A DNA stretch of 62,290 nucleotides from Candidatus Sungiibacteriota bacterium (lineage in GTDB: Bacteria; Patescibacteriota; Minisyncoccia; Sungbacterales; JACQCQ01), in contig JACQCQ010000006.1 in the NCBI GenBank assembly GCA_016201505.1, positions 1-62,290 of the forward strand, in the 5' to 3' direction. Position 1 is the stretch's first letter, and every line of letters begins with the position of its first letter. The notes beneath the pieces are model-generated. The model saw only the letters and a program-made list of their open reading frames with translations. It searched no databases and was not told the origin of the DNA. The translations under genes and the position numbers were made by a program. Of this stretch, positions 2,854 to 44,087 are shown in pieces.

Positions 2854-2952
2854 TACTTTTATTACGCCACATTCTATCAGCAGCGGGGATGATGTCGCGG
2901 GTTCACAGTTGTAAGCGATAAGCGCTCAAACAAATTTTTGTTTCTTTCGCAA

Positions 2953-6429: not shown

Positions 6430-6999
6430 TTATTTTGGCATCATCCCGAAGTGTTTGTATACCCGATACTCCTGATGGCCGAGGGATTTGGTTCTTAATA
6501 CTGTGACGAATTCTCGAATACGAAACACTGAAGCGATGAAATCTACTTCGTCTTCACAGGGCGAAGGATGAACAAACACGCTTTTGTGGAATTGAAAACA
6601 TCCCAAGTCGCAGATCTTCCTGCGCAGAGCATCGCGAGCTGTTTTGTGTCGCTCGGGTATGTCAAAAAGGATAACGTTCCAATACCCATCCCAGGATTTA
6701 AATTTTGCCAATTCTAAGTTCTCAAACTCAAATTTTTTAAGACGCGTCTTCCCGGCCTCTGTAATAGCCAGAACTTCATGCCTATTTTTATCCATTCGTA
6801 TTTCAATCAGCCTTCGCCTGCGCAACCGTCGCAGAGCTTGCTCAAGAGAGCGTTTTTTCAACTGACGACTTTTTGAAATAAAAGGTTTTAAGGCGATAGC
6901 GAGTCCGGGAAGTGTCGCTGCGGCAACACCAAGAGCCCCGCCGGTGAGAGCAGCCAAGATTGATTTCACGACTGCGCCCTTTTCTGTATCCCCCTTCAT
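6430..6999 (-). CDS. wHTH + Cas2/PaaX-like domain protein with hydrophobic N-terminal segment (paralog P1 of 3)
   Basis: 189 aa. N-terminal hydrophobic stretch ILAALTGGALGVAAATLPGLAIALKP, a basic wHTH-like block (LEQALRRLRRRRLIEI...ITEAGKTRL), and WDGYWNVILFDIPERHKTARDALRRKICDLGCFQFHKSVFVHP. The last matches the W-x-x-V-x-FDIPE...R...L...G...Q/H-x-SVFV pattern of PaaX middle domains and Cas2. Confidence 0.85.
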   Translation of the reverse strand: MKGDTEKGAVVKSILAALTGGALGVAAATLPGLAIALKPFISKSRQLKKRSLEQALRRLRRRRLIEIRMDKNRHEVLAITEAGKTRLKKFEFENLELAKFKSWDGYWNVILFDIPERHKTARDALRRKICDLGCFQFHKSVFVHPSPCEDEVDFIASVFRIREFVTVLRTKSLGHQEYRVYKHFGMMPK

Positions 7000-29973: not shown

Positions 29974-30546
29974 ATGAGAAAAAATGAAATTGTAAGATCA
30001 ATCCTTATGGTATTGGCGAGTACGGGGTTGGTGGCTGCAACGGTGATGCTACCGGGGTTGGCAATAGCGCTTAAGCCGTTACTCACCAAAAAGCATTCCG
30101 GCATTAAGAGACTTTCGATTGAACGCGCGTTGCGTCGCCTTAAAACGCGCAGGATGGTTCAAATTACTCTTGATGCGGGGGGTAACGAGACTCTCTCTAT
30201 AACTGAAGCTGGCAGGGTGCGTCTACGGAGACTTGAATTCGAGGATTTAATCTTAAAAATTCCTAAATCCTGGGACGGTTACTGGAGTGTAATTTTGTTT
30301 GATATCCCTGAACGGCATAAAACTGCTCGGGACGCACTGCGCATGAAATTGCGCAGTCTCGGGTGCTTTCAGTATCACAAGAGTGTGTTTGTGCATTTTG
30401 TCCCCTGCGAAGATGAAGTCGACTTTATAGCGGAGACATTCCAAATTCGGCGCTATGTTACTGTGTTCCGGACACGATCTCTGGGCCACCAAGAGCATCG
30501 AGCGTATCGACACTTCCATTTGAAACCCCAAGCGCTCCGACGGTAA
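29974..30546 (+). CDS. wHTH + Cas2/PaaX-like domain protein with hydrophobic N-terminal segment (paralog P3)
   Basis: 190 aa. Contains LVAATVMLPGLAIALKP, ERALRRLKTRRMVQI...ITEAGRVRL, and WDGYWSVILFDIPERHKTARDALRMKLRSLGCFQYHKSVFVHF. Long identical stretches shared with P1. Confidence 0.85.
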   Translation: MRKNEIVRSILMVLASTGLVAATVMLPGLAIALKPLLTKKHSGIKRLSIERALRRLKTRRMVQITLDAGGNETLSITEAGRVRLRRLEFEDLILKIPKSWDGYWSVILFDIPERHKTARDALRMKLRSLGCFQYHKSVFVHFVPCEDEVDFIAETFQIRRYVTVFRTRSLGHQEHRAYRHFHLKPQALRR

Positions 30547-30551
30547 GCATA

Positions 30552-30585
30552 TACCCTATGCCACGCTATAGCGTGGCATAGGGTA
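30552..30585. repeat. 34-nt perfect palindrome TACCCTATGCCACGCTATAGCGTGGCATAGGGTA downstream of P3
   Basis: Perfect self-complementarity. Differs from the palindrome at 56780-56813 by a single compensated base pair. Confidence 0.85.
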
Positions 30586-30605
30586 GCGGCTCGAGGAAAA
30601 GCGAG

Positions 30606-31817
30606 TTACTTAACGCCCGCATTCGTTGCCGGGCCTATATTCACGCGCCAGAGTGTTGAATCTTTTTTGTTTATGAAATAGAGATACTTCTCGTCGGGGG
30701 TAAGGAAGAGATGTGTCATATCAAATTGCGAGTCCGTCATGAGTAGGGACGCATTTCCCGTTGAGGCCTCAATTTTTACGAGTGCATCGTGGAAGTTGAC
30801 TTTCCCTTGATACCAATCGTCCGGAAGCCGGATTGATCCATCGCTGTTTATCGTGTCAGCGCCAAGCGGCACCGCGCAGTAGGTACTCGAGCCAACCTGA
30901 TTCCAGGCACATTTTTCCGCCAGCGTGCGGATCCCCGAAACGTCAAGAATGGCAGACGTTTTTTGATTCACCAGTCTAAGATCCTGAAGATTTCCGGCGG
31001 CGTCCGTTGATGAATATAGAAGCAGATTTTTTGCGCCAGCCGGGAGTAACGAGAGGCCGGGTCTTGAAAGAAAATTCTTAGCCGAACCACCAATCGGAAT
31101 GACATAGGCAAGACCAGACACCGCGTAGGTCGGCGTTGTGGTCAGGATCAGGCTGTTGGGGTCAATCCAGCTGACGTGAAAATCCGGGATTGATGTCTGG
31201 TAGATTGTTTTTTGGCTTTTGCCTTTGGCATCCGTCGTGGCGACGCGCAAGGTACTCCCAATCATCTCTGTGTAGGCAATCATGCTTGATTTTGGCGACC
31301 AGGCAGCGCTCGTTACTCCCGGCGGCAGAAATGATGTGCTGGACGCGGCGGTAGTTTGGTTAAAATATTTAGTTCCTCTGGCGTCGCTGTAGCCGACCGT
31401 TGAGTAGGCTTTGTCCGCCGCCCACATAACGTTTGTAATTCCAACCACAGTCAGATTAGATATCGCCGTCTCGTGCCCTCCGTCTAAATCTGCTCTCATC
31501 AGATTCCCGCCGATTTTTTGGTAGAACAAGAGACTCTTTCCGTCACCCGCCAGCGTCGCGCCGATGACGGGCTCTTTGGTAATTTGGGTCACGCTCGCGT
31601 TTACAGGCTGATTTTGATCAGCCGTTCCCGTTTTGTTGCCCGTTGTCGCGCCCGATGAACTCGAGGAACTGCCGCCCCCGCCCGGGAAGGAAAGGAATTT
31701 CGTAATTGTGGTACTCACGGAATTCGGTGAAGTGATGCGCGAATAAATAAACCAGCCAATTAGAATAAAGAGAATAATGGCAACGATACCGACTGAAATT
31801 TTTGTGACTCTTGTCAT
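30606..31817 (-). CDS. membrane-anchored TolB-like beta-propeller protein (last gene of the secretion-apparatus operon)
   Basis: Start taken at MTRVTKISVG (31817), 2 nt after the upstream stop. Has an N-terminal TM segment and a Gly/Ser linker. Repeats resemble PD40/TolB blades (AAWSPKSSMIAYTE..., LFYQKIGGNLMRADLDG). Confidence 0.55.
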   Translation of the reverse strand: MTRVTKISVGIVAIILFILIGWFIYSRITSPNSVSTTITKFLSFPGGGGSSSSSSGATTGNKTGTADQNQPVNASVTQITKEPVIGATLAGDGKSLLFYQKIGGNLMRADLDGGHETAISNLTVVGITNVMWAADKAYSTVGYSDARGTKYFNQTTAASSTSFLPPGVTSAAWSPKSSMIAYTEMIGSTLRVATTDAKGKSQKTIYQTSIPDFHVSWIDPNSLILTTTPTYAVSGLAYVIPIGGSAKNFLSRPGLSLLPAGAKNLLLYSSTDAAGNLQDLRLVNQKTSAILDVSGIRTLAEKCAWNQVGSSTYCAVPLGADTINSDGSIRLPDDWYQGKVNFHDALVKIEASTGNASLLMTDSQFDMTHLFLTPDEKYLYFINKKDSTLWRVNIGPATNAGVK

Positions 31818-31819
31818 AT

Positions 31820-32449
31820 TTAGTAAGGCGGTCCCACGTAGGTACAAACTGACTTATCGCCAAATGCTGGTTTGTAGTTTACTGGACAGGATCCACTATT
31901 AGAAGAAATTATTCCCGGCCAGCAGCTTCCGGCGTATTTATCTTTTACGTACGGGCTGGGACACGTATCGCCTGTTGATGGGATAGATCCGGGCGGGAGA
32001 GGCGCATTATTTGGGATATTGGGGTTAGCGCTTTGTAAAGCTGGGATTTGAATACTCCCAATGTTTAACTGCACCAGATGCGGATTGATTGTGTAGAGAA
32101 TAATATAAGAGCTAAGGGCTAAGACGATGCCCCAGATGGCATTGGTGATTTTGGTGTTGGCTTCGCTAATCTTACTCGGATTTCCTGCCGCATAGATACG
32201 CTTAAGCCCGCCCCAGCTGATCATGAACACCGATGAGACGCCAATGAGGGCAAGACCTAATTTATAAATAAAAATGAGGATGGCGTAGGCGTTTTGATCA
32301 GAGGCGGTGGGGACGTCATTAGCCGCTTGTGAATTTCCAGTAGCCGGCCTATCGGCGGTAAATTGGGCATCGTAATCAGCCGCAAAAGCCAACGAAGCAA
32401 TAGATACAAACAAGAGACAGAAGATAATGGATGTCGCGAAGTATTTCAT
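31820..32449 (-). CDS. pilin-like protein (VirB2/TrbC-like topology) with a Cys-rich C-terminal extension
   Basis: Signal peptide MKYFATSIIFCLLFVSIASLAFA, two hydrophobic helices (AYAILIFIYKLGLALIGVSSVFMISWGGL and AIWGIVLALSSYIILYTI) separated by a short polar loop, then a tail with 5 Cys. The assignment rests on topology only. Confidence 0.4.
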   Translation of the reverse strand: MKYFATSIIFCLLFVSIASLAFAADYDAQFTADRPATGNSQAANDVPTASDQNAYAILIFIYKLGLALIGVSSVFMISWGGLKRIYAAGNPSKISEANTKITNAIWGIVLALSSYIILYTINPHLVQLNIGSIQIPALQSANPNIPNNAPLPPGSIPSTGDTCPSPYVKDKYAGSCWPGIISSNSGSCPVNYKPAFGDKSVCTYVGPPY

Positions 32450-32458
32450 AGGTCTTCG

Positions 32459-33781
32459 TTATTGCACACTGGCCGCAAATGAGCCGAATATACGGAATAG
32501 TTTATCAACCGCGCTTTGGATCGTGACTGAAATATCTTGATTCCCCCGGATACCGGCAGCGCTTCGCAAGGTAAGGAGTTCAGGTGAAGCGCCCTTATTT
32601 TCGAGAACCTGGTTATTGGCCACCCATTGGTATTGTAAATCTTTTACGTAATTTTTCGGCGCAAAAAACGGCTCGGCGATAAAGTCATTGGCACCCCCCG
32701 ACTGGATGGGTATGCTCGAAATGGCGCGCGAGCCGTCAATGCCAGAGAGCGGAATTTTTTGGTAAATCAACGCTTCGGGCTCTGCCAGCGGCAACGGGAA
32801 CGTCGCCTCTTGGGAGAATGTGCCGGAAATATTTTCCACTTTTACGGAAATCGTATCGACAAGCTCTTTAACCGCGGGAATCGTATAGGCGAATATGCTC
32901 TTGGCTTGGCCGGATTGAGATGGAATAATATCGCCATTTATTTTCCAGGTATAAACCAGTGAGTTGGCAATGGCGTCTGCATATGAGGGACGGGCTTGGA
33001 TGTGGATGGTGCTGCCCGGTGTCGCTAGAGCTTTCCCCTGATACCAGGTTGGCACGTAGGTATCCGCCCACCAATAAAATGAAATTGAAAGCGGAATCAG
33101 TGTTTTTGAAGCTCGAAGAACAGTGCCGTCAATTTTCGTGATAGCCAGATCAACGCTGGTTCCGGTCCCGGCCGCCCCGAGACTAAGCGAAAGAGTTTGC
33201 TCGCCTTTCCCCGACTTGGCTATTTTTCCATTTACCCGCCATTCAAATGTGGCAGCCGCGAGCGCATCTCCAAGCGACGTCGCGGTCAAAAGAACGGCCT
33301 CGCCCGGCGCCGGTGAATCGTTGGAGGTATTGATATTGATTTGTGAAAGTCCCAAGAGGCTTGCGCCCACTGCACTCAAGTTATTTTGAATATCTGCCGG
33401 TGAGAGTTGAACACTCATGTATGTCGTCGCCTCGACCGGATTCTGATTCGGGATTGTAGCTCTCACGCGTAGCGGGTAAGATCCAGGACTGGCGGGTGCT
33501 TGGAATGTAAACAGCGTTCTATTGATCCCCGTGACAGTTGGGATCGAGCCATTATTGAAGTACCAGTAAAAAGTGGCCGTTTTAGGATCTGCGCCGACGA
33601 GCGTGGCTTGTGCCGAGAGCTGGGCATTTGTAAACGTCGTTGTTGACGGGATGACCGTTAGATTGATGCCGACGGTGCTTGTCGCGCTTTGCGCCAGGAC
33701 CGAGGCGCCCGGCATCAAGAGCATACAAACCAAGGCCGTCTCCGCCAGCCAGTATTTTTTTATGAGCCAAAAAGTTTTCAT
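32459..33781 (-). CDS. secreted protein with four Ig/PKD-like repeats
   Basis: Signal peptide ...LLMPGASVLAQS. Four repeats of roughly 90-100 aa are each marked by (F/Y)xW..N(G/N): FYWYFNNG, FEWRVNGK, YTWKINGD, YQWVANNQ. Confidence 0.6.
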   Translation of the reverse strand: MKTFWLIKKYWLAETALVCMLLMPGASVLAQSATSTVGINLTVIPSTTTFTNAQLSAQATLVGADPKTATFYWYFNNGSIPTVTGINRTLFTFQAPASPGSYPLRVRATIPNQNPVEATTYMSVQLSPADIQNNLSAVGASLLGLSQININTSNDSPAPGEAVLLTATSLGDALAAATFEWRVNGKIAKSGKGEQTLSLSLGAAGTGTSVDLAITKIDGTVLRASKTLIPLSISFYWWADTYVPTWYQGKALATPGSTIHIQARPSYADAIANSLVYTWKINGDIIPSQSGQAKSIFAYTIPAVKELVDTISVKVENISGTFSQEATFPLPLAEPEALIYQKIPLSGIDGSRAISSIPIQSGGANDFIAEPFFAPKNYVKDLQYQWVANNQVLENKGASPELLTLRSAAGIRGNQDISVTIQSAVDKLFRIFGSFAASVQ

Positions 33782-34425
33782 TGGTTTGACATCCAGAGGG
33801 CGAATAAATACACCAGCGGGCTGATGCCGGAAAACAATATGTAGACCAGCTCCGAACCCGGCACGGCTTCTTCTGCTTTTTGCATGGCTTCAGATCCCGG
33901 AGTGTTGACCCCGGCGAGTTTCATAGCCCGCGCGCCGCTCGTCATCGAGGCCGGATGCAGTTGGTGCCCCACGCGCCAGATCCAGAGAAAGCCTACAATC
34001 ACATAATCAATCATGATCGCAATAAAGGGAATGATAAAATCAGCCAGATAGCCAATCAGTGAAAAGAATGAGACCGCCGCGAATAACAACAACCACTGCA
34101 TCGAGCCGATTTTCTTTTGGGCTTTTTGTTCCGCCTCTTCTGCCCGTTCGGCTTGGGCAAGCGTTTGTTGGCGCCGGCTTTGAGACAGAGCGAGGTAATA
34201 ATTTTCTTCGGCTATTTGCTGGGCTTCGGCGGCCGCCTGTTCCTCCAGGGCCGCGGCTTCAGCCGACCGCATTTTTTCCTGCCGAGCCTGCTCGGCTTCA
34301 GTCCGCTGGTACCACGCTTCATTATCGTCATGATAATCAGTCGCAGGCATCGGCTCGCGTCGCAACACATCCGCAGTCTCAACCGCTCCTAAAATATTTT
34401 CTCTTTTCGTTTCTGTGCTCGGCAT
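33778..34425 (-). CDS. membrane protein with an N-terminal E/A/Q-rich coiled coil
   Basis: 215 aa. AEQARQEKMRSAEAAALEEQAAAEAQQIAEE... is followed by 2-4 hydrophobic segments. Its stop overlaps the next start by 4 nt. Confidence 0.6.
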   Translation of the reverse strand: MPSTETKRENILGAVETADVLRREPMPATDYHDDNEAWYQRTEAEQARQEKMRSAEAAALEEQAAAEAQQIAEENYYLALSQSRRQQTLAQAERAEEAEQKAQKKIGSMQWLLLFAAVSFFSLIGYLADFIIPFIAIMIDYVIVGFLWIWRVGHQLHPASMTSGARAMKLAGVNTPGSEAMQKAEEAVPGSELVYILFSGISPLVYLFALWMSNQ

Positions 34426-34429
34426 AGGT

Positions 34430-36238
34430 TTAACTTGCAGCCAGTTCGGCTTTCGCCTGCTTGATTAATAGTAACTGCTTGGGGTCGGAGGTGATGACCT
34501 GGTCTTCCGTGTAGGAGGCGATAATTTTAATGGCGACGTGCTTAAGTCCCGCAAAGAAAATCCCCTCCCCGACGTCGGACTCAAGCAACAGAAATTTTTC
34601 CTCTTCCGTCAGGTTAAAGGTCTGGGCGACGGCCTCAATCGTGGCGGGAGATTGCTTGAGTAACAGCTGGATCGAGGAGTTCGTCACGATCGGCTTCCCG
34701 TAGGGAGAGCCCATGAAGTCCGCCACATCCTGCGTGATGGTCGAAAGACCCAGATAATATTTGCGGCCGCGTTTGGCAATGCCGTATAGAAACGAGGCGC
34801 CGTCCTCATGCCGCATCAAGACCCAGGCCTCATCCACCACCAGGAGCCGCTTTTTCAACTCGGCCCTGACCAGGTTCCATATATAATGAAGCACGATATA
34901 CATCGCGACCGGCCGCAGTTCTTCTTCCATGTCGCGGACCGAGAAGACCACCATCTTGGAGTTAATATCAATGTTTGTCGGCTGGTTTAAGAATCCGGCC
35001 CAGGTGCCCTCGGTGTATTTTTTGAGCCGGGTGGCCAGCCCCGCGCCGCCCTCGGTATTGGCGAGCACCAAGGCCAGATCAGACAGCGTGGGAAAATTGG
35101 CTTTTGAGAAATCGGAGTTGGGCGTAATGTCGCGCGAGGCGTAAGTTTCGGTAATAGCGCGGTCAAGCACCGAATCTTCATCGGGCGTTAGGCCGCCCAA
35201 CATAATGCGAAAGAGTCCGACCAAGTTGATGATGTTCGATCTTAAAATATCCGAGGGCGACTCATCTTCGCGCGGCGGCGGCAGGTCAAAGGGATTAATG
35301 TGATGGGGCGAATTTAGTGAAATGTTAAAATATCGTCCGCCGACCGTTTCAGCAAGATACTCATACTCGCGTTCAGGATCAATCACCACCACATCCGTTC
35401 CGATCATGAGCGAACGCAGGATCTCAAGCTTTGAAGCGTAGGATTTGCCGCTGCCGGACTGGGCAAACATAACCGAGTTGCCGTTTGGCATTGAGAAGCG
35501 GTCGAAAATGATCAGCGAGTTGTTGTGGCGGTTAACGCCATACATGATGCCGCGCGACGAGGTCAGGTCGAATGAGACAAAGGGGAAGGTCGAAGAGATT
35601 GGTGCCGAATTCATGTAGCTATGAATGAGGAGCTCGTCATTGTTTAAGGGCAAGGTTGATTGGAAGCCTTCTTCCTGCTGGAAGAGTGCCGGCTTCAGGT
35701 AGACGAGTTTGGCTTCCAGCGCAGACTTAATTTGCGTTTCCAATTTATTTAACTCGGTTTCCGAGTCGCCGTAGATTGTAATGTAGAGGGCGAAGTTAAA
35801 TAATTTTTCGGTGGCTTGCTGGAGCTTGTCTCTTAATTCTTCCAGATCGCGGTAGGCGGTATCGAGCACCGGATCGCGCACCAAACCCTTTTCTTCTCTG
35901 GTGGCGAGCTGGGATTGGACTTGGGCCACTTTCTTGCGTAGCTGGTTTAAGACGTTCGATGTATCCACGGGGTGGACAAACATGGAAATGTCGAAGACCT
36001 TATCGAGATTGATGATCGGCGTAAACCAGTTGGTGTGCAGATACCGCGGGTAGGAAAAGGCAAAAAGAGTTCGGACCAGTTTTTCACCAAGTTGCAACGA
36101 AGATGGATTGACTTGCAAAGCCGAGGGCGAGATGATATCGCGCAATGATAATTCGGCCGTGCGGTAAATATCCTCGGGGAAAACGGCCAGTATTTCATCA
36201 GCCTCATTCTTTTTAGATTTTAGAAAATCAAACGCCAT
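34430..36238 (-). CDS. VirB4/TrsE-type type IV secretion ATPase, C-terminal about 600 residues (lacks the usual N-terminal domain)
   Basis: Walker A FAQSGSGKSYASK and Walker B RLLVVDEAWVLM. The segment ISPSALQVNPSSLQLGEKLVRTLFAFSYPRYL...DISMFVHPVD matches the mid-region of Gram-positive VirB4 proteins such as Tn916 Orf16 (from memory). Confidence 0.9.
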   Translation of the reverse strand: MAFDFLKSKKNEADEILAVFPEDIYRTAELSLRDIISPSALQVNPSSLQLGEKLVRTLFAFSYPRYLHTNWFTPIINLDKVFDISMFVHPVDTSNVLNQLRKKVAQVQSQLATREEKGLVRDPVLDTAYRDLEELRDKLQQATEKLFNFALYITIYGDSETELNKLETQIKSALEAKLVYLKPALFQQEEGFQSTLPLNNDELLIHSYMNSAPISSTFPFVSFDLTSSRGIMYGVNRHNNSLIIFDRFSMPNGNSVMFAQSGSGKSYASKLEILRSLMIGTDVVVIDPEREYEYLAETVGGRYFNISLNSPHHINPFDLPPPREDESPSDILRSNIINLVGLFRIMLGGLTPDEDSVLDRAITETYASRDITPNSDFSKANFPTLSDLALVLANTEGGAGLATRLKKYTEGTWAGFLNQPTNIDINSKMVVFSVRDMEEELRPVAMYIVLHYIWNLVRAELKKRLLVVDEAWVLMRHEDGASFLYGIAKRGRKYYLGLSTITQDVADFMGSPYGKPIVTNSSIQLLLKQSPATIEAVAQTFNLTEEEKFLLLESDVGEGIFFAGLKHVAIKIIASYTEDQVITSDPKQLLLIKQAKAELAAS

Positions 36239-36247
36239 CCCAGTCTA

Positions 36248-36562
36248 TCAACTTTCAGAGACGCCAAGCGCCGTTTTTCGGCGTGTGTACTCTTTTAGTC
36301 TTAATCCTAAAAATCTGCGACCTTGTGTGCCTTTGAGGTAATGCTCTCGGCGCTTGGCGTCGTCTTGATTTAAACAGGCTGCGTAATAAACAAGCTCGAA
36401 TGGCAATCGAAACTTGGTCGCAACAGAATAACCTCGTTTGTGTTCTTCTACTCGTTTTCGAAGATTAGGCGTATAACCAATATATCTTTTTTTATCTTTC
36501 ATACTTTCTAGTGCATATGTATAGGAGAACACACTGGAAGTTGTATTACTGGGCATAATCAT
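36248..36562 (-). CDS. stand-alone GIY-YIG nuclease-domain protein lying between the two VirB4 pieces
   Basis: 104 aa. FSYTYALESMKDKKRYIGYTPNLRKRVEEHKRG carries the GIY...YIG...R...E motifs. Its start overlaps the upstream stop (ATGA), and its stop is 9 nt from the VirB4 ATPase ATG. Confidence 0.85.
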   Translation of the reverse strand: MIMPSNTTSSVFSYTYALESMKDKKRYIGYTPNLRKRVEEHKRGYSVATKFRLPFELVYYAACLNQDDAKRREHYLKGTQGRRFLGLRLKEYTRRKTALGVSES

Positions 36563-37236
36563 ATGGTTTCCTCACTGGTTGGTTTCTCTTTTTCCAACTC
36601 CTGCATATTGTACAAACTGTAGAAAAGCTCAATTAGTTCATCCGTTTTTAAAACGGCGCTGCGTACTCCGATGCGCTGGAGGCCGAGTTGCACAGAGTCG
36701 ACTCTCTGCAGAAGCTGGATTTTATTTTGCGCGAACTCGTCGTCGCTTTTCGTTTTGGCGGATTGGTTTTTGGAAAACAGAGAAGAAAGAAAATGCGCCG
36801 CTCCGGCCGGATTTAGGTTTATCGGCTCAAAGGGAACGACAATATAGAAAGATTTCGCCACGATATTCGACAGTTCAACGAACCCGCGCACGAACTCGAT
36901 GTATTCTGCGGTCTGGAGTTTTAATAAGTCATTGTCTTGCGCTTTTTCAAATTCGCGGAGGGATGAAAGGTAGGGCTCGATGTTCAATTTGCGGGATTGA
37001 ATCACGAACTGAAGCGAAAAATCAACCGAATTCAAAAAGTTCTGGTACTGGAAAATAATCGCATCCTGTTCCTCGGGAGATTTCAGCGCAAAGTTAAAAG
37101 CCGAGGCCATCAGGACCATACACAGGCGGCCGTTTTTCATCACAATCAGACCATCGCGGATTGAATCAATCACCAAAAAGTCCTGCGAGGCGCGGGCTGA
37201 TTTTGATTTTTTCGATTCTTGAGGGGCGGTAACCAC
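36559..37236 (-). CDS. VirB4 N-terminal domain encoded as a separate 225-aa protein
   Basis: DFLVIDSIRDGLIVMKNGRLCMVLMASAFNFALKSPEEQDAIIFQYQNFLNSVDFSLQFVIQSR matches the N-terminal module of Gram-positive VirB4/TrsE proteins (D-I-x-Y...E-D/E...F...FLN...Q). 225 + 602 aa is about the length of a full VirB4. Confidence 0.65.
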   Translation of the reverse strand: MVTAPQESKKSKSARASQDFLVIDSIRDGLIVMKNGRLCMVLMASAFNFALKSPEEQDAIIFQYQNFLNSVDFSLQFVIQSRKLNIEPYLSSLREFEKAQDNDLLKLQTAEYIEFVRGFVELSNIVAKSFYIVVPFEPINLNPAGAAHFLSSLFSKNQSAKTKSDDEFAQNKIQLLQRVDSVQLGLQRIGVRSAVLKTDELIELFYSLYNMQELEKEKPTSEETI

Positions 37237-37256
37237 GAATGTTTACAAGAATTGTA

Positions 37257-37658
37257 TTATTCCAGGTTCTCTTTTATATCCAGGCTCCAAGCCAAATCCT
37301 GCAACTTGGATTCGGTTAACTTGGGGATTTTAGAGAGCGGAGTTTTAGGCGTTGCGGTCGGCCCTTCTTTTTTCGCCGGCTGCTGCTTCCAGAGGTATAG
37401 ATGCGGGTGGGTGTAGAAGCCGATGGCGTTCATGACCACTTTCGGAAATGGCACGTTGTTTAATTTAAAAAAGGCCAGAGCCAATGAAAACAAGCCGATG
37501 GGAACAGCCAGCACGATAAAAATATAAAAATTGAAAAGATAGTAAAAAATAACTAAGAGACCGGCTCCCACGGCTAGGTACATAAATTGTTTCAGCGTCA
37601 GCGGGCCGATAATTTTATCCTCGATGTCGATAAATTGCGGGACTTGGTATTGTCTCAT
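37257..37658 (-). CDS. PrgI-family (VirB3-like) type IV secretion membrane protein
   Basis: MRQYQVPQFIDIEDKIIGPLTLKQFMYLAVGAGLLVIFYYL is the characteristic PrgI-family N-terminus, followed by two TM helices. Confidence 0.85.
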   Translation of the reverse strand: MRQYQVPQFIDIEDKIIGPLTLKQFMYLAVGAGLLVIFYYLFNFYIFIVLAVPIGLFSLALAFFKLNNVPFPKVVMNAIGFYTHPHLYLWKQQPAKKEGPTATPKTPLSKIPKLTESKLQDLAWSLDIKENLE

Positions 37659-37662
37659 GATT

Positions 37663-38119
37663 AGGAAATAGGCATTGGGTAATGGGGAATGGATAGGTAT
37701 GTCATAGACGATTGAGACTTGTTATTAAAGCATTCAGCATTTTCATTATGGAAGTTCTGCTCTGCGAGAACCTGTCAAAATTGGATGTATTCAATAGGCC
37801 AACGTTTTTGCTTACCAGCAATTGAGTTTCTAATTCTGCAGCTGAACCTCGAGCAATCCTTAAAAATTGATTGTACTCCTTAATATTTTTACGTGACCAT
37901 CCTTCAGCAATATTAGAAGCAATTGAAATCGCCGCCCGTCTAATTTGGCTCGTCAACCCATACACTTCAGATTTTGGATATAATTCTGTCATACGATATG
38001 TTTCAGTGGTCAGCTCAATTGACTTTTGCCACACCAGTAATTCTCGATACGAATTCATGTTCCATTCGCTGTTCCCCGTTTACCGTCCCTCATTTCCCAT
38101 TCGCTATCCCCCATTTCCT
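37663..38119. mobile_element. four-helix-bundle gene cassette bounded by imperfect inverted GGGAAT/AGGAAAT-word arms (IVS-like insertion)
   Basis: The left arm AGGAAATAGGCATTGGGTAATGGGGAATGGATAGG (37663-37697) pairs with the right arm whose reverse complement is AGGAAATGGGGGATAGCGAATGGGAAATGAGGG... (ending at 38119). The outer 7 nt are perfectly complementary. The first 12 nt are identical to the hairpin at 48681. Confidence 0.6.
37702..38058 (-). CDS. four-helix-bundle protein (23S rRNA intervening-sequence protein / Avd-like family)
   Basis: YRELLVWQKSIELTTETYRMTELYPKSEVYGLTSQIRRAAISIASNIAEGWSR...RIARGSAAELETQLLVS is the canonical TIGR02436-type sequence. Confidence 0.9.
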   Translation of the reverse strand: MNSYRELLVWQKSIELTTETYRMTELYPKSEVYGLTSQIRRAAISIASNIAEGWSRKNIKEYNQFLRIARGSAAELETQLLVSKNVGLLNTSNFDRFSQSRTSIMKMLNALITSLNRL

Positions 38120-39032
38120 AGCCGACTGGTTCACGGTATGGATCGGACGCCTCGTAGGTTTGGGTTTTTGGCGCCGGAGACGTTGCCGGCTTTACAAGCG
38201 GCGGCAGTTTTTCGGGTGCGGGCGGCGGAGGCACAATAATTTTTGGCGTTTGAGGTTCGGTTACTGGTTCTGGTTTTTTAATTTCGGGACTAGGTGCGGG
38301 CACTGGGGTGTGCATGATACCAGACTCCTGCGGCATGGTTTTTATGACCGGAACGGGAGCCGGTTTTGGTTGTAGGCTCGGCATCTCTGGTGTCTCTCGT
38401 GCAGGAGGCGCCGGGGGTTTTGCAATATCCGGCAATTTTTCCGGCAGAATTTCTTTTAAGATGATTGGCGCTTCGGATTTTGGTTCCGTTTGAATCGGCT
38501 TTGGCGTAAATGTCGGCCTTGGCACTGGAGTTTCAAGCGTCATTTGGGGTGCCGCTGTTTTAATTTCCGCTATGGGCGCCGGCGCGTTCGGCGTTTTTAT
38601 TGGAATAGGCACTACCCCCGGACTTTTTGTTTCTTTGGCCATTTGGGTTTCCCGTTTTAATTCCGCCAGCGATGCGGGTTTCTCTTCTGGAATGAGAGGA
38701 CTATTCATTTCTACTTTATGAAGTGTTTTTAAACTTTCGCGGATTGGCGAGAAGAGTTGATGATTTACGTCCTCGGCGATCAAAATGGCTTTATCTCGGG
38801 AAACGCCAAGCGAAGACTTGATGTTGTCAATAAATTCCCGCGCGGGAGACGCGCCGACGAGCACGAGACCGATTTCGTAGCTTAAGTCCCCCACGATATC
38901 AATCGGCAAGGCGTATTTCTTACCGATACTCATGATAATTTGCGAAGTCTCTTGCGCTTCGTAGATTCTCGCGATATCGATCGGGAGAGTTTTATATAGT
39001 TCGATCAGCTGTTCTTTCGATATTTTTCTCAT
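38118..39032 (-). CDS. protein with a helical N-terminal domain and a long Pro-rich tail
   Basis: 304 aa. The N-terminal roughly 105 residues look ordered and the remainder is P/A/E/K/T-rich (PAPIAEIKTAAPQ..., PPPPAPEKLPPLVKP). Its start overlaps the upstream stop by 4 nt. Confidence 0.65.
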   Translation of the reverse strand: MRKISKEQLIELYKTLPIDIARIYEAQETSQIIMSIGKKYALPIDIVGDLSYEIGLVLVGASPAREFIDNIKSSLGVSRDKAILIAEDVNHQLFSPIRESLKTLHKVEMNSPLIPEEKPASLAELKRETQMAKETKSPGVVPIPIKTPNAPAPIAEIKTAAPQMTLETPVPRPTFTPKPIQTEPKSEAPIILKEILPEKLPDIAKPPAPPARETPEMPSLQPKPAPVPVIKTMPQESGIMHTPVPAPSPEIKKPEPVTEPQTPKIIVPPPPAPEKLPPLVKPATSPAPKTQTYEASDPYREPVG

Positions 39033-41641
39033 GGTTGTGTTTGTTGCTGCTGCGGTCCGGTCGCTGGCGGAGGTGGGACTTCGGCTGCGGCAGCCGCCGT
39101 CTCGCCGGCCTTATTCGATAATGGTATTTCATTTCGGACAGAAGTTTGTGCGTCCGGATTTGAAGTGAGAGTTTGGGCCATACCTTGGAATCGAGGGATA
39201 CTTCTAAGTTTTCTTACTGCATACCGCATATTAGTACCCCTTGTGCTGTCGTAAGCATCAAGGATTTTATCAGACTGCTCCCTATCCCATTGCTGGTAGC
39301 GCGCAGTTTTCTCGCCCGGGTCAGTGATAGCATCAAACGAAGGAATTATATAACCCGAAACCATGCGTTTCTGCCCCAGCCATCGATTCATCTCTTGACG
39401 TTGCTGGTTTTTATCATCAGGGAATATGCTCGTGATGCGTTCGAGTGTTTCTCGGAGATCTCGATCACTGCCCGTCGTAAGCGTCACGTTGGTCTCGGGG
39501 TGCTGGATAGTAACCTTATTGAAGTGCTCATCAGCCCCGTCATTTAGATTGGCGTCTAAACCAAGGCCAGCTCCCTGTTTAATGATTTTGCCAAGCTCTT
39601 TTACTCTAAACAGATCGCTGAATATATTCCGCATCGTATTAATGTTGGTCAGCGCCAGAGGCAGAGCCGCACGGAAGACTCCGTTCTTTTCGAAGGTTTC
39701 AGCGCTGATTTTTCTTTGATCGTCTGCCGACATGGAGGCAATCGTCTGCGCCATGCCGCGCATCATGGCTTCGGCTCTCTCCCGCTCATCAGGCTTGCCG
39801 CTCTTAAGAAGCGCCTCGAACTGATTCTCGGGCATATCCCTAATGTTTTCATTGCCCGTCAGAACGCGGGCTTTCTTGCTTAGATCAGATCCGATCGCCT
39901 CCAGCACCTTGCTTTGGTTCTTGGGACTCAATTGCTCAAAGCCTGTTTGATCTCGAATGTCTGCTGACTCTTTGTCTGCAAAAGTATTGCGCAGTTGAAC
40001 AGGCTTGGCATCTTCAATAAACTTCTCCTTTACATTTTTAGCCGCTGATTCAAAGAGCCCGGAGGCTACTCCTGTTTTAATAAACCTTCCGCTGGAATCC
40101 GCAGCCGCTTGCAGAGCAGCAACGCGCGCCTTCTCTCGGTCATCACGCAGTTTTTTGTCTCGTTGCGTAACTGTCAGTAACGGCGCGGCCGCTAATCTGC
40201 CAAGACCCGGGAAAGCTGAAAGTCCTGTCGCTGATTGCACACGAAGCCCAAGTCTTGCGAGCGGAGCGGCTCCCCAACGCACTCCCGCATTCTGCAACTT
40301 CGTCTGGCCCCAATTGCGCAATTGCTTACCGTACTTCATGACACTGCTTGATCCGGCAATGCCCATCTTTTGCGCCACAATTATGGAAATAAATAGGAAG
40401 CTCACGCTAAGGATGAATTGTAGCCAGATGCTGAGGGGTTGGGCTACGGGTTGTCCATTAATATTTGCGAGTGGAGGCGGGATAGCATTTATCAAGGAGC
40501 GCGATACGAGAATTGAAAACATGAAAAACAAGGCAAACGCGGGGTAGTATAGGGAATATTTTATGAGGTTGTCTCTCCAGGGATTCCACATTTGGCCTTG
40601 TGTATAAGGAATCAGTGTTGAGAGAAAGGCCAGCGGACTGACCATCATGAGAAAAGCCAATACCGTAATTCGAACAATCAGAAAAATGGTGGCAGCAAGT
40701 AAGGCAAACAGGCCAACTGGATAAAAGATAAGTTTTAGAGCCAAAGCTTTGCCCACCAGCGAGAGCGTATCATTGTTCTCGCTTATCTGGTTGTTTACGG
40801 TGAGGAGTGCGGCACTAGCGCTATCGCACTTATCGCTATTTTCTTTGGTATAATTCAGAAAGACTGCTTTACACGCTTCAAACCTATCCGCTTCGGCTTT
40901 TTTAAGGCCCTCATTTCCCGCATAAGCCGCTGGTGGTGTTAGGGCAGCATTAACGGGCAGTGTGGGATCAAGCATCGTACGAATGACATCCCCCATCGAT
41001 TGATCTTTTTGCTGGATACGGCCAATAAAGAGATCGCCCAGCGCGTTCGTCACCTGCACGGTAAATTGAACAATGGGAAAGCTGAAGTTGATAATTAAAG
41101 CAATCAGAACTACTTTCCCAATCATTTCTTTTTTGAATGTGCCGACATCAAAAATAGTGCCGAGCGCCATCACGATCAGGATGATGATGAAAAATAAATT
41201 CGCAACATCGCGCGAAATTTGCCAGCCGGCTTGAATTGCGGGAGTGGCTGATAGATTGGCCCGTGTTTCATCAAGAGCCATGCTGAAGAGGTAACTGGCT
41301 ATGCCATAGACGAGATAGGCTAAGCCGTCGAGAGTCTTGATACCCGCCAAGATAAAACCGCAGGCATACAATTTCCAGCTCAAGACGTTGTATCCGCAGC
41401 CCAAGTTGGGTGAGACCGTTGGTGTTGTGGCCGGGCTGCCTCCAGTCAGATTAGTTTTCTGCAAATCACTCTGTTGCGCTTGTGCCGCGGGACTTGACGT
41501 TTTTTCATACTCGAATTGGCCAAGGTCTGGCGGAGAAGCCGGGTTTGCATTTTGTGCCAAACTGATGGCCGGCATCAAAAGGCCTAGGCTGATAGAGGCG
41601 AGTAAGAAAGTATTGAGAATTGTTTTCAGGATTTTGCTCAT
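39029..41641 (-). CDS. large polytopic membrane protein; possible VirB6/TrbL functional analogue
   Basis: 870 aa. Signal peptide, at least 7 hydrophobic segments in residues about 90-470, then a soluble roughly 400-aa C-terminal domain ending in QQQQTQP. The assignment rests on topology and operon context only. Confidence 0.4.
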   Translation of the reverse strand: MSKILKTILNTFLLASISLGLLMPAISLAQNANPASPPDLGQFEYEKTSSPAAQAQQSDLQKTNLTGGSPATTPTVSPNLGCGYNVLSWKLYACGFILAGIKTLDGLAYLVYGIASYLFSMALDETRANLSATPAIQAGWQISRDVANLFFIIILIVMALGTIFDVGTFKKEMIGKVVLIALIINFSFPIVQFTVQVTNALGDLFIGRIQQKDQSMGDVIRTMLDPTLPVNAALTPPAAYAGNEGLKKAEADRFEACKAVFLNYTKENSDKCDSASAALLTVNNQISENNDTLSLVGKALALKLIFYPVGLFALLAATIFLIVRITVLAFLMMVSPLAFLSTLIPYTQGQMWNPWRDNLIKYSLYYPAFALFFMFSILVSRSLINAIPPPLANINGQPVAQPLSIWLQFILSVSFLFISIIVAQKMGIAGSSSVMKYGKQLRNWGQTKLQNAGVRWGAAPLARLGLRVQSATGLSAFPGLGRLAAAPLLTVTQRDKKLRDDREKARVAALQAAADSSGRFIKTGVASGLFESAAKNVKEKFIEDAKPVQLRNTFADKESADIRDQTGFEQLSPKNQSKVLEAIGSDLSKKARVLTGNENIRDMPENQFEALLKSGKPDERERAEAMMRGMAQTIASMSADDQRKISAETFEKNGVFRAALPLALTNINTMRNIFSDLFRVKELGKIIKQGAGLGLDANLNDGADEHFNKVTIQHPETNVTLTTGSDRDLRETLERITSIFPDDKNQQRQEMNRWLGQKRMVSGYIIPSFDAITDPGEKTARYQQWDREQSDKILDAYDSTRGTNMRYAVRKLRSIPRFQGMAQTLTSNPDAQTSVRNEIPLSNKAGETAAAAAEVPPPPATGPQQQQTQP

Positions 41642-43107
41642 CGCTGGAAAATATTACCCAGTCCCTTATTGATCATCTGGCCGACGGCGGTGTTGACAAT
41701 GCTCGCAATCGCTTGGCCGATTTCATTGACCAAATCACGTTGGCGGTCATTTGATTGAATCAAAGATTTCAGCGGTTCGGCTACGATCGAGCCCGGCGTC
41801 ACAATAGAGCCATTGGCATTCTGCTGGCCGTAGAATCCGTTGTTGGCAATGGTTTGAGTTCTCCAGGCGTTGACCGCGGCCGTCTCATAAGCCGCTTTGG
41901 CGTCTTGTGCATTAATTACAGTCTGGACGTAATCACGATTCGGGCTTTGAGCCGCGATCCAATCAGAAATCGGGTAGTTACCGGTGTACGGCGAATAAAA
42001 TTGCGTGTATAAAGCCAGTTGCGGATTGGCTACGTTACAAGCCAGGCTTATGGAGATGTTATTGGAAAATAACGCCGGACCGACGATGGGCGGGAAGTAG
42101 TTGCAGAAATTAATGCCGGTGATTTGCGAGACAAAGATACGCGCCGCGTTTTCGGCGATTTTTTTCGGGTCGGCCGTAAAACTTTGCACGAACTGCGGCG
42201 CGCCGAAGTTGCCGGTTAAAATCCAGCGGATGACCATGTCATGCGCGAGCCGTATCACCTGACGCTCGAGGGCGGTCGCGATGCTATCGAGGCAGTATTC
42301 TTTTTTTACGAGGGCGGCCACATCTTTTTCCGTTTTGGTATTTTCTCCCAAAATCTTCGTCAATATGGTGTCTGTTTTTGCATGTGCAACGCTTTCGGAT
42401 ATGGATAGAAGTAGATCATGCACGGGGATTCCTGTTATCACACCCGCAGTGTCTACTACCTCCGTGCCGCCGTAATCGAATACTTCGTCTGCATAACTTC
42501 CAACGTTACTCGCGACTGTATCCGCCGTTTGACTTGCATCTTCCGTCATGAATTGCCCCACAGCCACTGACCCAGAAGTACCGGCGGTTTCAGTTTCCTC
42601 GACAGCTTTATTGGCAAAATCAGTGCTGGCTTTGTCAAGCGCGTCAGATGAAGCTTGGGACTGCGCGGTGTTTACTACAGAACTTTGACTAATGTCTTGC
42701 TTGATTTCGGTTTTGAATAAACCCCTCAATTGGTCTTGGGCATATTTTTTAGCCCCCTCAACGCCGCCGACTTTAGCCAGTACTGCGCTGACGCCATCTT
42801 TTACCGCGCCGCCAATAGCGCCCTGCGCGATGTTGGCAATATCACCGCCGTTGACGCAACCCGCCCCCGGGATAAATCCCTTGAGGAAACTGGTGATACC
42901 GCTGTCGACCCCGCTATCTACTACGCCGCTTGCCGGCAGATTATTATTGATTTCTTGCAGAACTTGGTCTCCCGTTCCGGGCAGTCCGCCCTGCTCTTGG
43001 GCCAAAGACACGCTGGGCACGACCAATTCAAGCCCTAACACCAGGCATAACCCAATTCCGATCAATCTATTTCTCCAAAAATGAAAATTCCGATTCATGG
43101 TTACCAC
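41638..43107 (-). CDS. secreted hypothetical protein (489 aa)
   Basis: N-terminal signal/anchor [24 protein letters not shown] and a Gly/Ala/Val-rich N-terminal part. 4-nt overlap with the next gene. Confidence 0.6.
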
Positions 43108-44087
43108 CGAAACGTCAAAATGGCTGAATCATGCGATTTAAACTTGACCCCGAGACTGTTGAGCCGCGCAGGAATGGTTGTATTAAAAAGGTCGGCTAAC
43201 TTTTTGCCGGTTACTTCGTAGTCTTGGACCGCGATGATGGCCGACATCGGATCTTTTTGGGTATTGGCGAACGTTTTGTAAATAAATTTTTCTTTGCCGA
43301 TCAGCTGCAAAATCTGCAGGTGGAGATCTTTGACAGGCGCGGGGACTGGGATGGCGGCAATGGCCTGAAACGAGGCCTCGGCCGCCGCGGCATAATAATT
43401 GAATAATCCGTAGCGCGATGCGCTGTTCGGATTGCGCGAAATCTGAAACATCAGCTGAATCGGGTCTTGTCTCACGCCGGCCGAATGTTCACGCAAAATT
43501 TCCGCCATCGAATTAAAATAGTCGCGGATGGCGTCGGGGCTTGCGTCCCCGCCGACTCGAATTTGATTGGGACTTACAGCGCCCGCGGTTTCCGAGGCGG
43601 TTTCATAATTTGATCCGAGCGATTGGATATTTTGCAGCGAGGTCTGAATATCGGGCGATGGCTGAAGCGTGTTGGCGAGTGCGCCCGAGTTGATGATGGA
43701 TTCAGCAAGCTGTGAAGTCAGACCCGCCGATCCGGCAGTCGAGTCGGGGTTTAAGTTTCCGCAACCTTTGACTGTCGGGTCACAGCCCTTTTTCACCTCA
43801 TCACCGTCAGAAACCCCGTCACCGTCGGTGTCGGGATTGTTCGGGTCCGTATGCCAGAGGGTCTCCTCCCAGTTTTTCAGCCCGTCGTGGTCTGGATCAA
43901 CGAGTAAGCCATTAGCCTCGCCGTTGCCGCCGACCGCCGCCGAGAGCCGATTTTGGATAGCCTCCCCGCGGTGCTTCAAAGCGACGTATTCGATCGCAAA
44001 AAATAAGACCAAGAGACCGGCCAGCAACAGCAAAACCACCACGAGCTTTCGCCTGTACGCCAAAATCGCATGGACGATATTCGCCAT
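43101..44087 (-). CDS. membrane-anchored protein with thrombospondin-type-3-like calcium-binding Asp repeats (first gene of the operon)
   Basis: TM anchor [17 protein letters not shown], then [35 protein letters not shown] (DxDxDG repeats). Confidence 0.6.

Follow-up and report, generated by a model that had tools for sequence, protein, structure and literature searches.

We analysed a window of 62,290 nucleotides (nt), the contig JACQCQ010000006.1 of a Candidatus Sungiibacteriota bacterium (assembly GCA_016201505.1), in which VirB4, the ATPase of a type IV secretion system (T4SS), is encoded in two pieces with a small nuclease gene between them. All T4SS genes and cassettes of the window described here lie on the minus strand. 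Read in the direction of transcription, a 225-residue open reading frame (ORF) with a GTG start (36559..37236, hereafter the N piece) is followed by a GIY-YIG nuclease ORF (36248..36562) and then by a 602-residue ORF with a P-loop domain (34430..36238, hereafter the ATPase piece). An earlier note on this DNA had described these three ORFs, an ATGA overlap at the first junction and a 9-nt gap at the second, and had read the arrangement as a virB4 gene split by a selfish GIY-YIG gene, which the host tolerates by making VirB4 as two polypeptides. The ORFs, the overlap and the gap are all where it placed them. The comparison with related genomes leads to a different account, which we regard as very probable: VirB4 was already encoded by two genes in the ancestor, and a cassette of about 318 nt with the GIY-YIG gene, belonging to a structured family located at start codons, was later inserted at the ATPase start codon.

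The two pieces of VirB4

The N piece has the features of a TrsD-like, stand-alone VirB4 N-domain protein. Among the NCBIfam models it matches VirB4_plasma (Mbov_0397) at positions 95-233 of 894 (E=1.5e-8) and the CD1110 model at positions 11-129 of 752 (E=1.9e-5); both matches are weak and collinear with the N-terminus of VirB4. A further match is to the stand-alone TrsD/TraD family (E=4e-6), with a score against NF041427 of 26.8 bits, below the curated cut-off of 200 bits, which points to a remote TrsD/TraD homologue that falls short of membership in the curated model. Its size of 225 residues, its position directly upstream of the ATPase gene and its homology to the VirB4 N-terminus all fit the description of TrsD/TraD-type proteins. 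The local Pfam scan returned no family for the N piece; PF26593 (TraC-like) is found as a precomputed annotation on the identical protein P0001 and on relatives. Out of 2,491 homologues, the best 120 all have 189-242 residues, all but one carry the precomputed PF26593, and their source names, where given, are those of Patescibacteria (Sungbacteria, Giovannonibacteria, Ryanbacteria).

An alignment profile of the N piece retrieved nothing at E<=1 from the sequences of the PDB. We therefore report structural similarity from an AlphaFold model, built from a 24-sequence alignment with a mean predicted local distance difference test score (pLDDT) of 74.3. The top 14 PDB matches of this model are all TrwK/VirB4 chains of plasmid R388 (Foldseek probability 0.99-1.0, 178-192 aligned columns). 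Together with the matches to the N-terminal part of the NCBIfam models, this bears out the assignment of the 225-residue protein as a VirB4 N-domain homologue, in structure as well as in sequence.

The ATPase piece corresponds to the remainder of VirB4, also in agreement with the earlier note. It covers positions 181-733 of 752 in NF045971, the CD1110-family VirB4 model (E=4e-108; 362.6 bits, above the curated cut-off of 325 bits), and the Pfam P-loop_TraG domain is recognised with E=2.8e-25 and 89.2 bits (cut-off 25.8). From the positions that both pieces occupy on the CD1110 profile, they are collinear and do not overlap on a single VirB4 profile. The two parts do not form one polypeptide: a stop codon ends the N piece, and the ATPase piece is a separate ORF.

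A two-gene VirB4 older than the GIY-YIG gene

Relatives of the N piece were collected in a scan with one genome per species, where at least 594 stretches encode a homologue, and in a metagenome scan that added 45 loci. The records kept from the species-representative scan are metagenome-assembled or uncultured genomes whose taxon labels, where present, are Patescibacteria groups. Split and fused forms were counted over the 123 Patescibacteria loci that carry both the N piece and the ATPase piece (individual loci are referred to by our labels, L001 and so on). The two pieces are separate in 123 of 123 loci and fused in none, the spacer between them has a median of 10 nt (40 nt or less in 93 of the 123), and no GIY-YIG gene occupies this junction in any of them. 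This includes the nearest relatives, at 71-75% identity to the window. L156 (75%) has a stop codon, 9 nt and then ATG GCA TTC TTC, and equally GIY-YIG-free junctions with spacers of 5 nt are found in L001 (Ca. Sungbacteria, 73%) and L005 (71%), and with 4 nt in L093 (71%).

Since all 123 loci show the split without the GIY-YIG gene, the split is independent of that gene. TrsD homologues have been described as the most abundant T4SS component in Patescibacteria, with 2,272 found and 1,664 of them associated with virB4; outside this group, TrsD has been known from Gram-positive systems of the pGO1 subclass (Quinonero-Coronel et al., 2025, PMC12102498). The pGO1-type TrsD and TrsE/VirB4 and the published Patescibacteria pair share with the window a VirB4-N homologue of about 200-230 residues upstream of a shortened ATPase, beside PrgI/VirB3 (PMC12102498). 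Nothing essential differs between them as regards the two VirB4 pieces; what sets the window apart is only the GIY-YIG cassette in the 2-nt spacer. These gene layouts indicate that VirB4 is natively encoded by two adjacent genes in this lineage, one for a TrsD-like N-domain and one for the ATPase, and that the split is ancestral, older than the GIY-YIG gene and already published.

The proposal that the insertion created the split, and that the host puts up with it through two polypeptides, has to be given up: among the orthologous loci, where the earlier note had suggested looking for an uninterrupted virB4, none is fused and the two pieces are separate regardless of the GIY-YIG gene. What holds of its overall interpretation are the identities of the genes and the status of the GIY-YIG gene as an insertion relative to related genomes, the junction being without it in all 123 loci.

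Unusually long TrsD/VirB4 spacers were seen in L006 (312 nt, 3965-4284), L012 (198 nt, 6633-6850) and L029 (234 nt, 2804-3051). They hold no recognisable ORF family, and an ORF in that of L006 has no Pfam match. These spacers may be decayed cassettes.

Extent and sites of the cassette

Comparison with the empty junctions of L001, L005 and L156 places the whole inserted segment at 36239..36556, about 318 nt that comprise an ATG, the ORF, its stop codon and a 9-nt tail. The empty junctions of the relatives imply a change from 'TGA TT ATG GCG' to 'TGA TT ATG [CCCAGT...ACTGGG ATG] GCG'. The junction between the N piece and the GIY-YIG gene reads '...ACC ATA TGA TT ATG CCC...', and the ATGA overlap is real; a second ATG (36556) sits 2 nt past the stop of the N piece and is the likelier start because homologues begin with MPSNTTSS. 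The GIY-YIG protein has 104 residues counted from the first ATG and probably 102 from the second one. At the other end, the 9 nt after the stop codon are TAGACTGGG, followed by the ATG of the ATPase piece.

Genomic look-ups of members of the GIY-YIG family yielded nine other cassettes, and the alignment used below comprises these and the copy of the window. The ten copies occupy nine different sites, the two before dnaB being possibly orthologous. Besides virB4, these sites are secE|nusG, purB|purF, the position before dnaB (two genomes), HD|DUF72, the position before an AbiEii gene, PMT_2|GSDH, SIMPL|hypothetical and the position before clpB. All ten copies are co-oriented with the downstream gene. 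Their right end reads ...AC(T/G)(G/T)GG(T), and in every copy an ATG follows at a distance of 0-1 nt; in at least eight this ATG is the start of the downstream gene, as annotated or, for the window, by homology. Directly after the cassette, ATG TGT GGA ATA GCC GGA encodes the MCGIAG of PurF, nusG and dnaB begin in the same way, and clpB starts at its annotated position. An ATG is present on both sides of the cassette in all ten copies, and TATG on both sides in all seven copies that have a T before the 3' ATG. The cassette family is found at the start codons of unrelated genes, in sense orientation, with ends that are conserved and can pair.

In L140, L145 and L149 (~2501-2511) the upstream host gene runs 11 nt into the cassette and stops at a TAA in the 5' arm (CC(C/A)GTAATAC). 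As these host genes end inside the 5' arm, the cassette supplies a stop codon in a second frame. Copies of the cassette termini without the ORF were not found in the window and about 150 loci. A search of viral contigs for the 3' terminus gave five matches, all in one phage coding sequence, and these were discarded as not being cassettes.

This distribution also bears on the possibility that the GIY-YIG protein is a functional T4SS accessory, for instance a nuclease working with the ATPase, which selection maintains. Tight packing with the operon genes, in all likelihood with co-transcription, and purifying selection on the protein (see below) would suit such a role, and in the T4SS operons of L007 and L040 prgI is preceded by a GIY-YIG ORF of a more distant kind. 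Nevertheless, the gene is present at this junction in one of 124 operons (the window and the 123 loci), its closest family members stand beside nusG, purF, dnaB, clpB and other genes, and unrelated small ORFs occupy the same junction in other genomes. We rejected the accessory role on this distribution and consider it very improbable.

The GIY-YIG protein

Pfam PF01541 is recognised in residues 13-82 of the ORF with E=1.8e-13. The best relative of solved structure is the UPF0213 protein BH0048 (PDB 1ZG2_A, 107 residues; E=4.1e-5, residues 13-83), the match to Slx1 is weak (E=0.85), and the model for group I intron endonucleases scores 18.2 bits, below its cut-off of 56 bits. The ORF consists of the catalytic domain alone, with no additional DNA-binding domain, and is of the UPF0213/YhbQ/Slx1-like single-domain type of about 100 residues. 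Its family comprises proteins of about 101 residues that are 66-77% identical to it (119 listed members) and occur in distant Patescibacteria groups such as Nealsonbacteria and Doudnabacteria. The ratio of nonsynonymous to synonymous divergence (dN/dS) is about 0.12, with synonymous divergence saturated (median dS about 1.6), a value that points to purifying selection on the protein. Searches with Pfam and NCBIfam hit no transposase family in the cassette, whose sole ORF is the GIY-YIG domain.

The window ORF aligns with the proteins of the family over 88-100% of its length, and the VirB4 pieces are full length relative to a close relative (225 vs 229 residues for the N piece and 602 vs 605 for the ATPase piece in L001), which argues that the three-ORF arrangement is not a chance pattern of ORFs. 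An artefact, in which a frameshift or a chimeric join from sequencing or assembly broke a single virB4 and left spurious ORFs, has nothing in its favour beyond the unusual layout. The two-gene layout recurs with intact stops and starts in 123 independent assemblies, and full-length pieces together with a full-length GIY-YIG ORF at 66-77% identity to its relatives speak against it as well, making this the least credible of the explanations weighed here and practically negligible.

The size of the protein is equally relevant to the comparison with the free-standing homing endonuclease genes that split phage genes, which the earlier note had drawn. The GIY-YIG homing endonucleases of T4-like phages (SegA-G) and the intron-encoded I-TevI share with the window the GIY-YIG domain, an intergenic place between conserved genes (in the free-standing case) and variable presence. 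The phage enzymes are about 200-250 residues long, include a linker as well as a DNA-binding domain, and act on the cognate locus wherever a genome lacks them. In contrast, the window protein is a bare domain of about 100 residues, and the copies of its family stand at unrelated loci that share only (T)ATG at the junction, so that ten copies at nine sites have no single cognate homing site. That such a gene invaded an intact virB4 and split it, leaving the host to make two polypeptides, is in agreement with the place of the ORF exactly between halves that are collinear on one VirB4 profile and with its absence from relatives. Against this, all 123 related loci are split without GIY-YIG and none is fused, the split is published as TrsD plus VirB4, the 104-residue protein (Pfam residues 13-82) has no DNA-binding domain, and its family lies at unrelated genes. 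We consider the homing origin of the split hardly tenable, and the analogy with phage homing endonucleases does not hold.

A fold shared by the cassette copies

For the ten copies RNAalifold gives a common fold of three helices. Helix P1 brings the two ends of the cassette together. Its 5' arm, CCCAGTAATACAACTTCCAG (36534..36553, codons 2-8 of the ORF), pairs with a 3' arm, CTGAAAGTTGATAGACTGGG (36239..36258), that is made of the last codons, the TGA stop and the 9-nt tail and abuts the ATG of the ATPase piece; written as partners, 5' CCCAGTAATACAACTTCCAG stands against 3' CTGGAAGTTGATATACTGGG. P1 was found both as inverted repeat I2 and by RNAalifold (columns 4-23 with 303-322). Helix P2 joins 36522..36533 to 36439..36450 (RNAalifold columns 24-35 with 107-118); its 5' arm overlaps inverted repeat I1 and its 3' arm lies in the codons of the R-x-EEH motif. 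Helix P3 joins 36349..36358 to 36263..36272 (columns 199-208 with 289-298), the 5' arm lying inside the 14-nt perfect inverted repeat I3 and the 3' arm being recovered by both the repeat search and RNAalifold.

The termini are imperfect inverted repeats of 20 nt that are conserved among the copies. The first ~30 nt and the last ~22 nt are almost invariant in all ten; over the whole ORF the nine other copies have just 59.5-76.5% nucleotide identity to that of the window. Compensatory changes in P1 are CCCCGT/ACGGGG in L140, CTTCCCA/TGGGAAG in L138 and CTTTCGG/CCGAAAG in L147, and in the divergent paralogue L086b the arms are CCCCGTACCACAG and CTGTGGTACGGGG. In P2, the column pair 25/117 has G-C in four copies and A-U in four, and in P3 five of the ten pairs carry compensatory changes. 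Over P1-P3, 92.8% of the cells are paired, versus 34-44% when the partners are slid by 1-3 columns, and the compensatory pairs number 13 versus 2-4 with slid partners. An Rfam scan of 36100-38250 at E<=1 returned only a chance snoRNA-like match, so that no known RNA family covers P1-P3.

Other cassettes in gene junctions

The window carries a second cassette (37662..38120), which begins at the stop codon of the gene upstream and ends 3 nt short of the PrgI ATG. It encodes a four-helix-bundle protein of the 23S_rRNA_IVP type (37702-38058; Pfam PF05635, E=8.7e-37; TIGR02436) between complementary arms of 30 nt (37662-37691 and 38091-38120) detected in the inverted-repeat search. This cassette sits between a gene for a 304-residue protein and prgI, a junction that is empty of it in L001 and holds a family member in L005. 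By tblastn, the window contains no further copies of the GIY-YIG, N-piece, ATPase or 23S_rRNA_IVP sequences besides the originals.

Small ORFs in the gene junctions of 22 related T4SS loci and the window belong to three families, GIY-YIG, 23S_rRNA_IVP (TIGR02436) and PDDEXK_3 (GxxExxY, TIGR04256), always in operon orientation. At the TrsD|VirB4 junction itself, PDDEXK_3 is present in L025 and 23S_rRNA_IVP in L038 and L157, the insert of L157 (72% identical to the window) ending in TAA TT ATG GCA. Of 23 cassettes from the window and related loci, 20 have cognate flanks that pair above the mean of the non-cognate control, and in 16 the margin exceeds 12 kcal/mol; duplex energies are -34 to -58 kcal/mol for 18 of the 23, and control means -14 to -33 kcal/mol.

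In L025 (1072-3522) three successive junctions of one T4SS operon are occupied: a 23S_rRNA_IVP ORF precedes prgI, and PDDEXK_3 ORFs lie on either side of the TrsD-like gene, one towards prgI and the other towards virB4. Two cassettes are present in several other T4SS operons, and the loci with multiple cassettes besides L025 are L105, L106, L110 and L013. A distant GIY-YIG subfamily of 89-95 residues lies upstream of prgI in L007 (5100-5387, after the gene for the 304-residue protein) and L040 (5133-5402), with its own common 3' motif AC(A/G)GGGTGCTCAA(A)TTTTG and complementary flanks. In L092 (1398-1784) a PDDEXK_3 ORF stands between nusG and rplK on the same contig as the secE|nusG GIY-YIG cassette; junction cassettes have colonised even this operon, the most conserved one of bacteria. 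Our searches of open-access text found no published account that places cassettes with GIY-YIG, four-helix-bundle or GxxExxY ORFs at the junctions of operons or at start codons, only papers on rRNA insertions and intervening sequences.

The surrounding T4SS operon

A PrgI/VirB3-like protein is encoded directly upstream of the N piece in the same operon (37257..37658; Pfam PF12666, E=8.3e-11) and is syntenic in related loci. The T4SS-like operon extends over 19000-43200 of the window on the minus strand and is syntenic with other Patescibacteria loci. Across the loci examined the order is conserved, with proteins of 489 residues, VirB6-like, 304 residues, PrgI, TrsD-like, VirB4, and then 440, 209 and 413 residues; in the window VirB4 is followed by proteins of 215, 440, 209 and 413 residues. 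The 870-residue protein of the window is the VirB6-like one, its homologue in L005 having a faint TrbL_3 match, and the 304-residue protein is proline-rich. Pfam families were searched for in three flanking genes, those for the 870-, 304- and 215-residue proteins, and none was found. VirB4 accordingly stands in the context of VirB3/PrgI and VirB6-like membrane proteins, and the window holds a chromosomal type IV secretion operon that is an ordinary member of the Patescibacteria set. Two 1-kb windows that include both cassettes and prgI (36001-38000) have a GC content of 0.44 and 0.425; their neighbours over 30001-44000 range from 0.478 to 0.538.

Insertion at a start codon

The comparison of filled and empty junctions, the shared ends and the covarying helices point to the GIY-YIG gene as a later, lineage-specific insertion of a compact folded cassette. 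About 318 nt were most likely inserted exactly at the ATPase start codon in an ancestor of this genome. For the expression of the genes we propose the following. The cassette would have neither a promoter nor a ribosome-binding site of its own and would borrow the translation signals of the host gene through its upstream ATG, which would inherit the leader of that gene; in the window, GAGG stands 7 nt before the first ATG of the GIY-YIG ORF. The displaced host ATG could be served by termination and reinitiation, with a stop codon 9 nt upstream; alternatively, P1 could loop the ORF out, so that the leader and the ATG of the host gene come to lie side by side. An insertion placed at a start codon would thereby do almost no harm, and copies could survive in tightly packed genomes. 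With spacers of a few nucleotides only such insertions may be tolerated, a restriction that would account for the pattern seen even with no more than (T)ATG as the primary target.

Several points weigh against this account. In L149 (2804-2840) the ATG after the cassette opens an ORF of just seven codons and the next annotated gene is 123 nt downstream, which makes this copy, of the ten, the clear exception to placement directly at a host start codon. In L086a the downstream start is ambiguous; gene calls vary between records, and the longer one shares its reading frame with the flanking ATG. We infer the exact insertion boundaries and any target-site duplication from pairs of empty and filled sites that do not exceed 90% identity, and the flanking ATG/TATG repeat could be either such a duplication or a part of the element. 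As to the fold, none of 500 column shuffles reached the observed value on four of five measures, a significance that is overstated because the ten aligned copies are related sequences; the slid-partner control is free of that weakness. P1 of the window copy is only 75% complementary and weaker than in the other copies. Single changes to G-U and to A-C are about equally common in the helices, and this balance decides neither between RNA and single-stranded DNA nor on the strand. We know of no transposase-like function for single-domain GIY-YIG proteins. Finally, the translational model is one that we infer from sequence.

Relation to known elements and mode of spread

The layout of the cassette resembles that of rRNA intervening sequences (IVS), here placed in protein-coding operons. 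ORF-bearing IVS combine an S23p/23S_rRNA_IVP ORF with a stem at their termini that RNase III cuts, as in the 23S rRNA genes of Leptospira and Coxiella (PMC4990558), and rRNA genes of the candidate phyla radiation (CPR) contain non-intron insertions with GIY-YIG and 23S_rRNA_IVP ORFs that were judged to lie outside a homing context (PMC11270868). The likeness consists in a small ORF between complementary termini, a sporadic distribution and the same two families, of which the window has one each. However, IVS sit in rRNA helices, while both cassettes of the window lie between protein-coding genes of a T4SS operon. Unlike an IVS, the GIY-YIG cassette has no non-coding arms, forms its stem from its own first and last codons and abuts a host start codon; and RNase III processing, by which IVS are excised, is hypothetical for the window cassettes.

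Short elements such as Correia/NEMIS of Neisseria, ERIC and RUP/BOX are also comparable, as they have terminal inverted repeats and lie between operon genes. Once transcribed, the stems of such elements can be RNase III substrates. These elements are non-coding and their transposase is encoded elsewhere, whereas the GIY-YIG cassette is filled by a conserved ORF under purifying selection. It appears to be a new variant of IVS-like elements or of elements like miniature inverted-repeat transposable elements (MITEs).

Two accounts of how such cassettes spread were weighed. The cassette may be a passive hitch-hiker whose conserved terminal helix serves as an RNase III processing or mRNA-stability element, like those of rRNA IVS and Correia-type repeats, spread by ordinary recombination or by horizontal transfer of parts of operons, with the GIY-YIG protein working in cellular repair instead of mobility. 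The architecture of ORF-bearing IVS with their RNase III-cut stems (PMC4990558) and the GIY-YIG and 23S_rRNA_IVP ORFs of CPR rRNA insertions outside a homing context (PMC11270868) fit this account, and three unrelated protein families in one bracketed layout argue that the encoded protein is not a common mobility factor. On the other hand, precise insertion with identical ends at the start codons of at least nine unrelated sites is hard to obtain by general recombination, and the internal helices P2 and P3 covary within the coding sequence, beyond what a simple processing stem would need. We take passive carriage to be possible, although we doubt it.

The cassette could instead be a minimal element that moves autonomously. 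The nuclease that it encodes, structure-specific like Slx1, would recognise the fold of three helices formed by the coding sequence itself. The element would insert at (T)ATG start codons, duplicating the ATG and capturing the translation signals of the host, and owing to P1 and the nearby stop codon the host gene would still be translated. Cassettes of the 23S_rRNA_IVP and GxxExxY types would then be parallels, all forming one unrecognised class of start-codon and gene-junction parasites of which the rRNA IVS would be a special case. This proposal is speculative, and as a whole we think it rather unlikely.

Under the account that we favour, an ancestral two-gene VirB4 with a later cassette insertion, the two-gene VirB4 is the normal and published state of Patescibacteria, and what is possibly new is the inserted cassette. 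Its coding sequence doubles as a conserved three-helix structure, and the genes at whose start codons it lies are unrelated and often essential (dnaB, nusG, purF, clpB, virB4) and belong to hosts whose genomes are among the smallest and most compact of bacteria. Junction inserts of this kind can mislead annotation, as 'split genes' or spurious 'operon partners', and are worth masking or flagging in analyses of CPR genomes. Should the cassette prove capable of moving by itself, it would rank with the smallest known autonomous elements, and the ORF-bearing IVS of rRNA genes, long without an explanation, would be tied to a broader class of cassettes at operon junctions.

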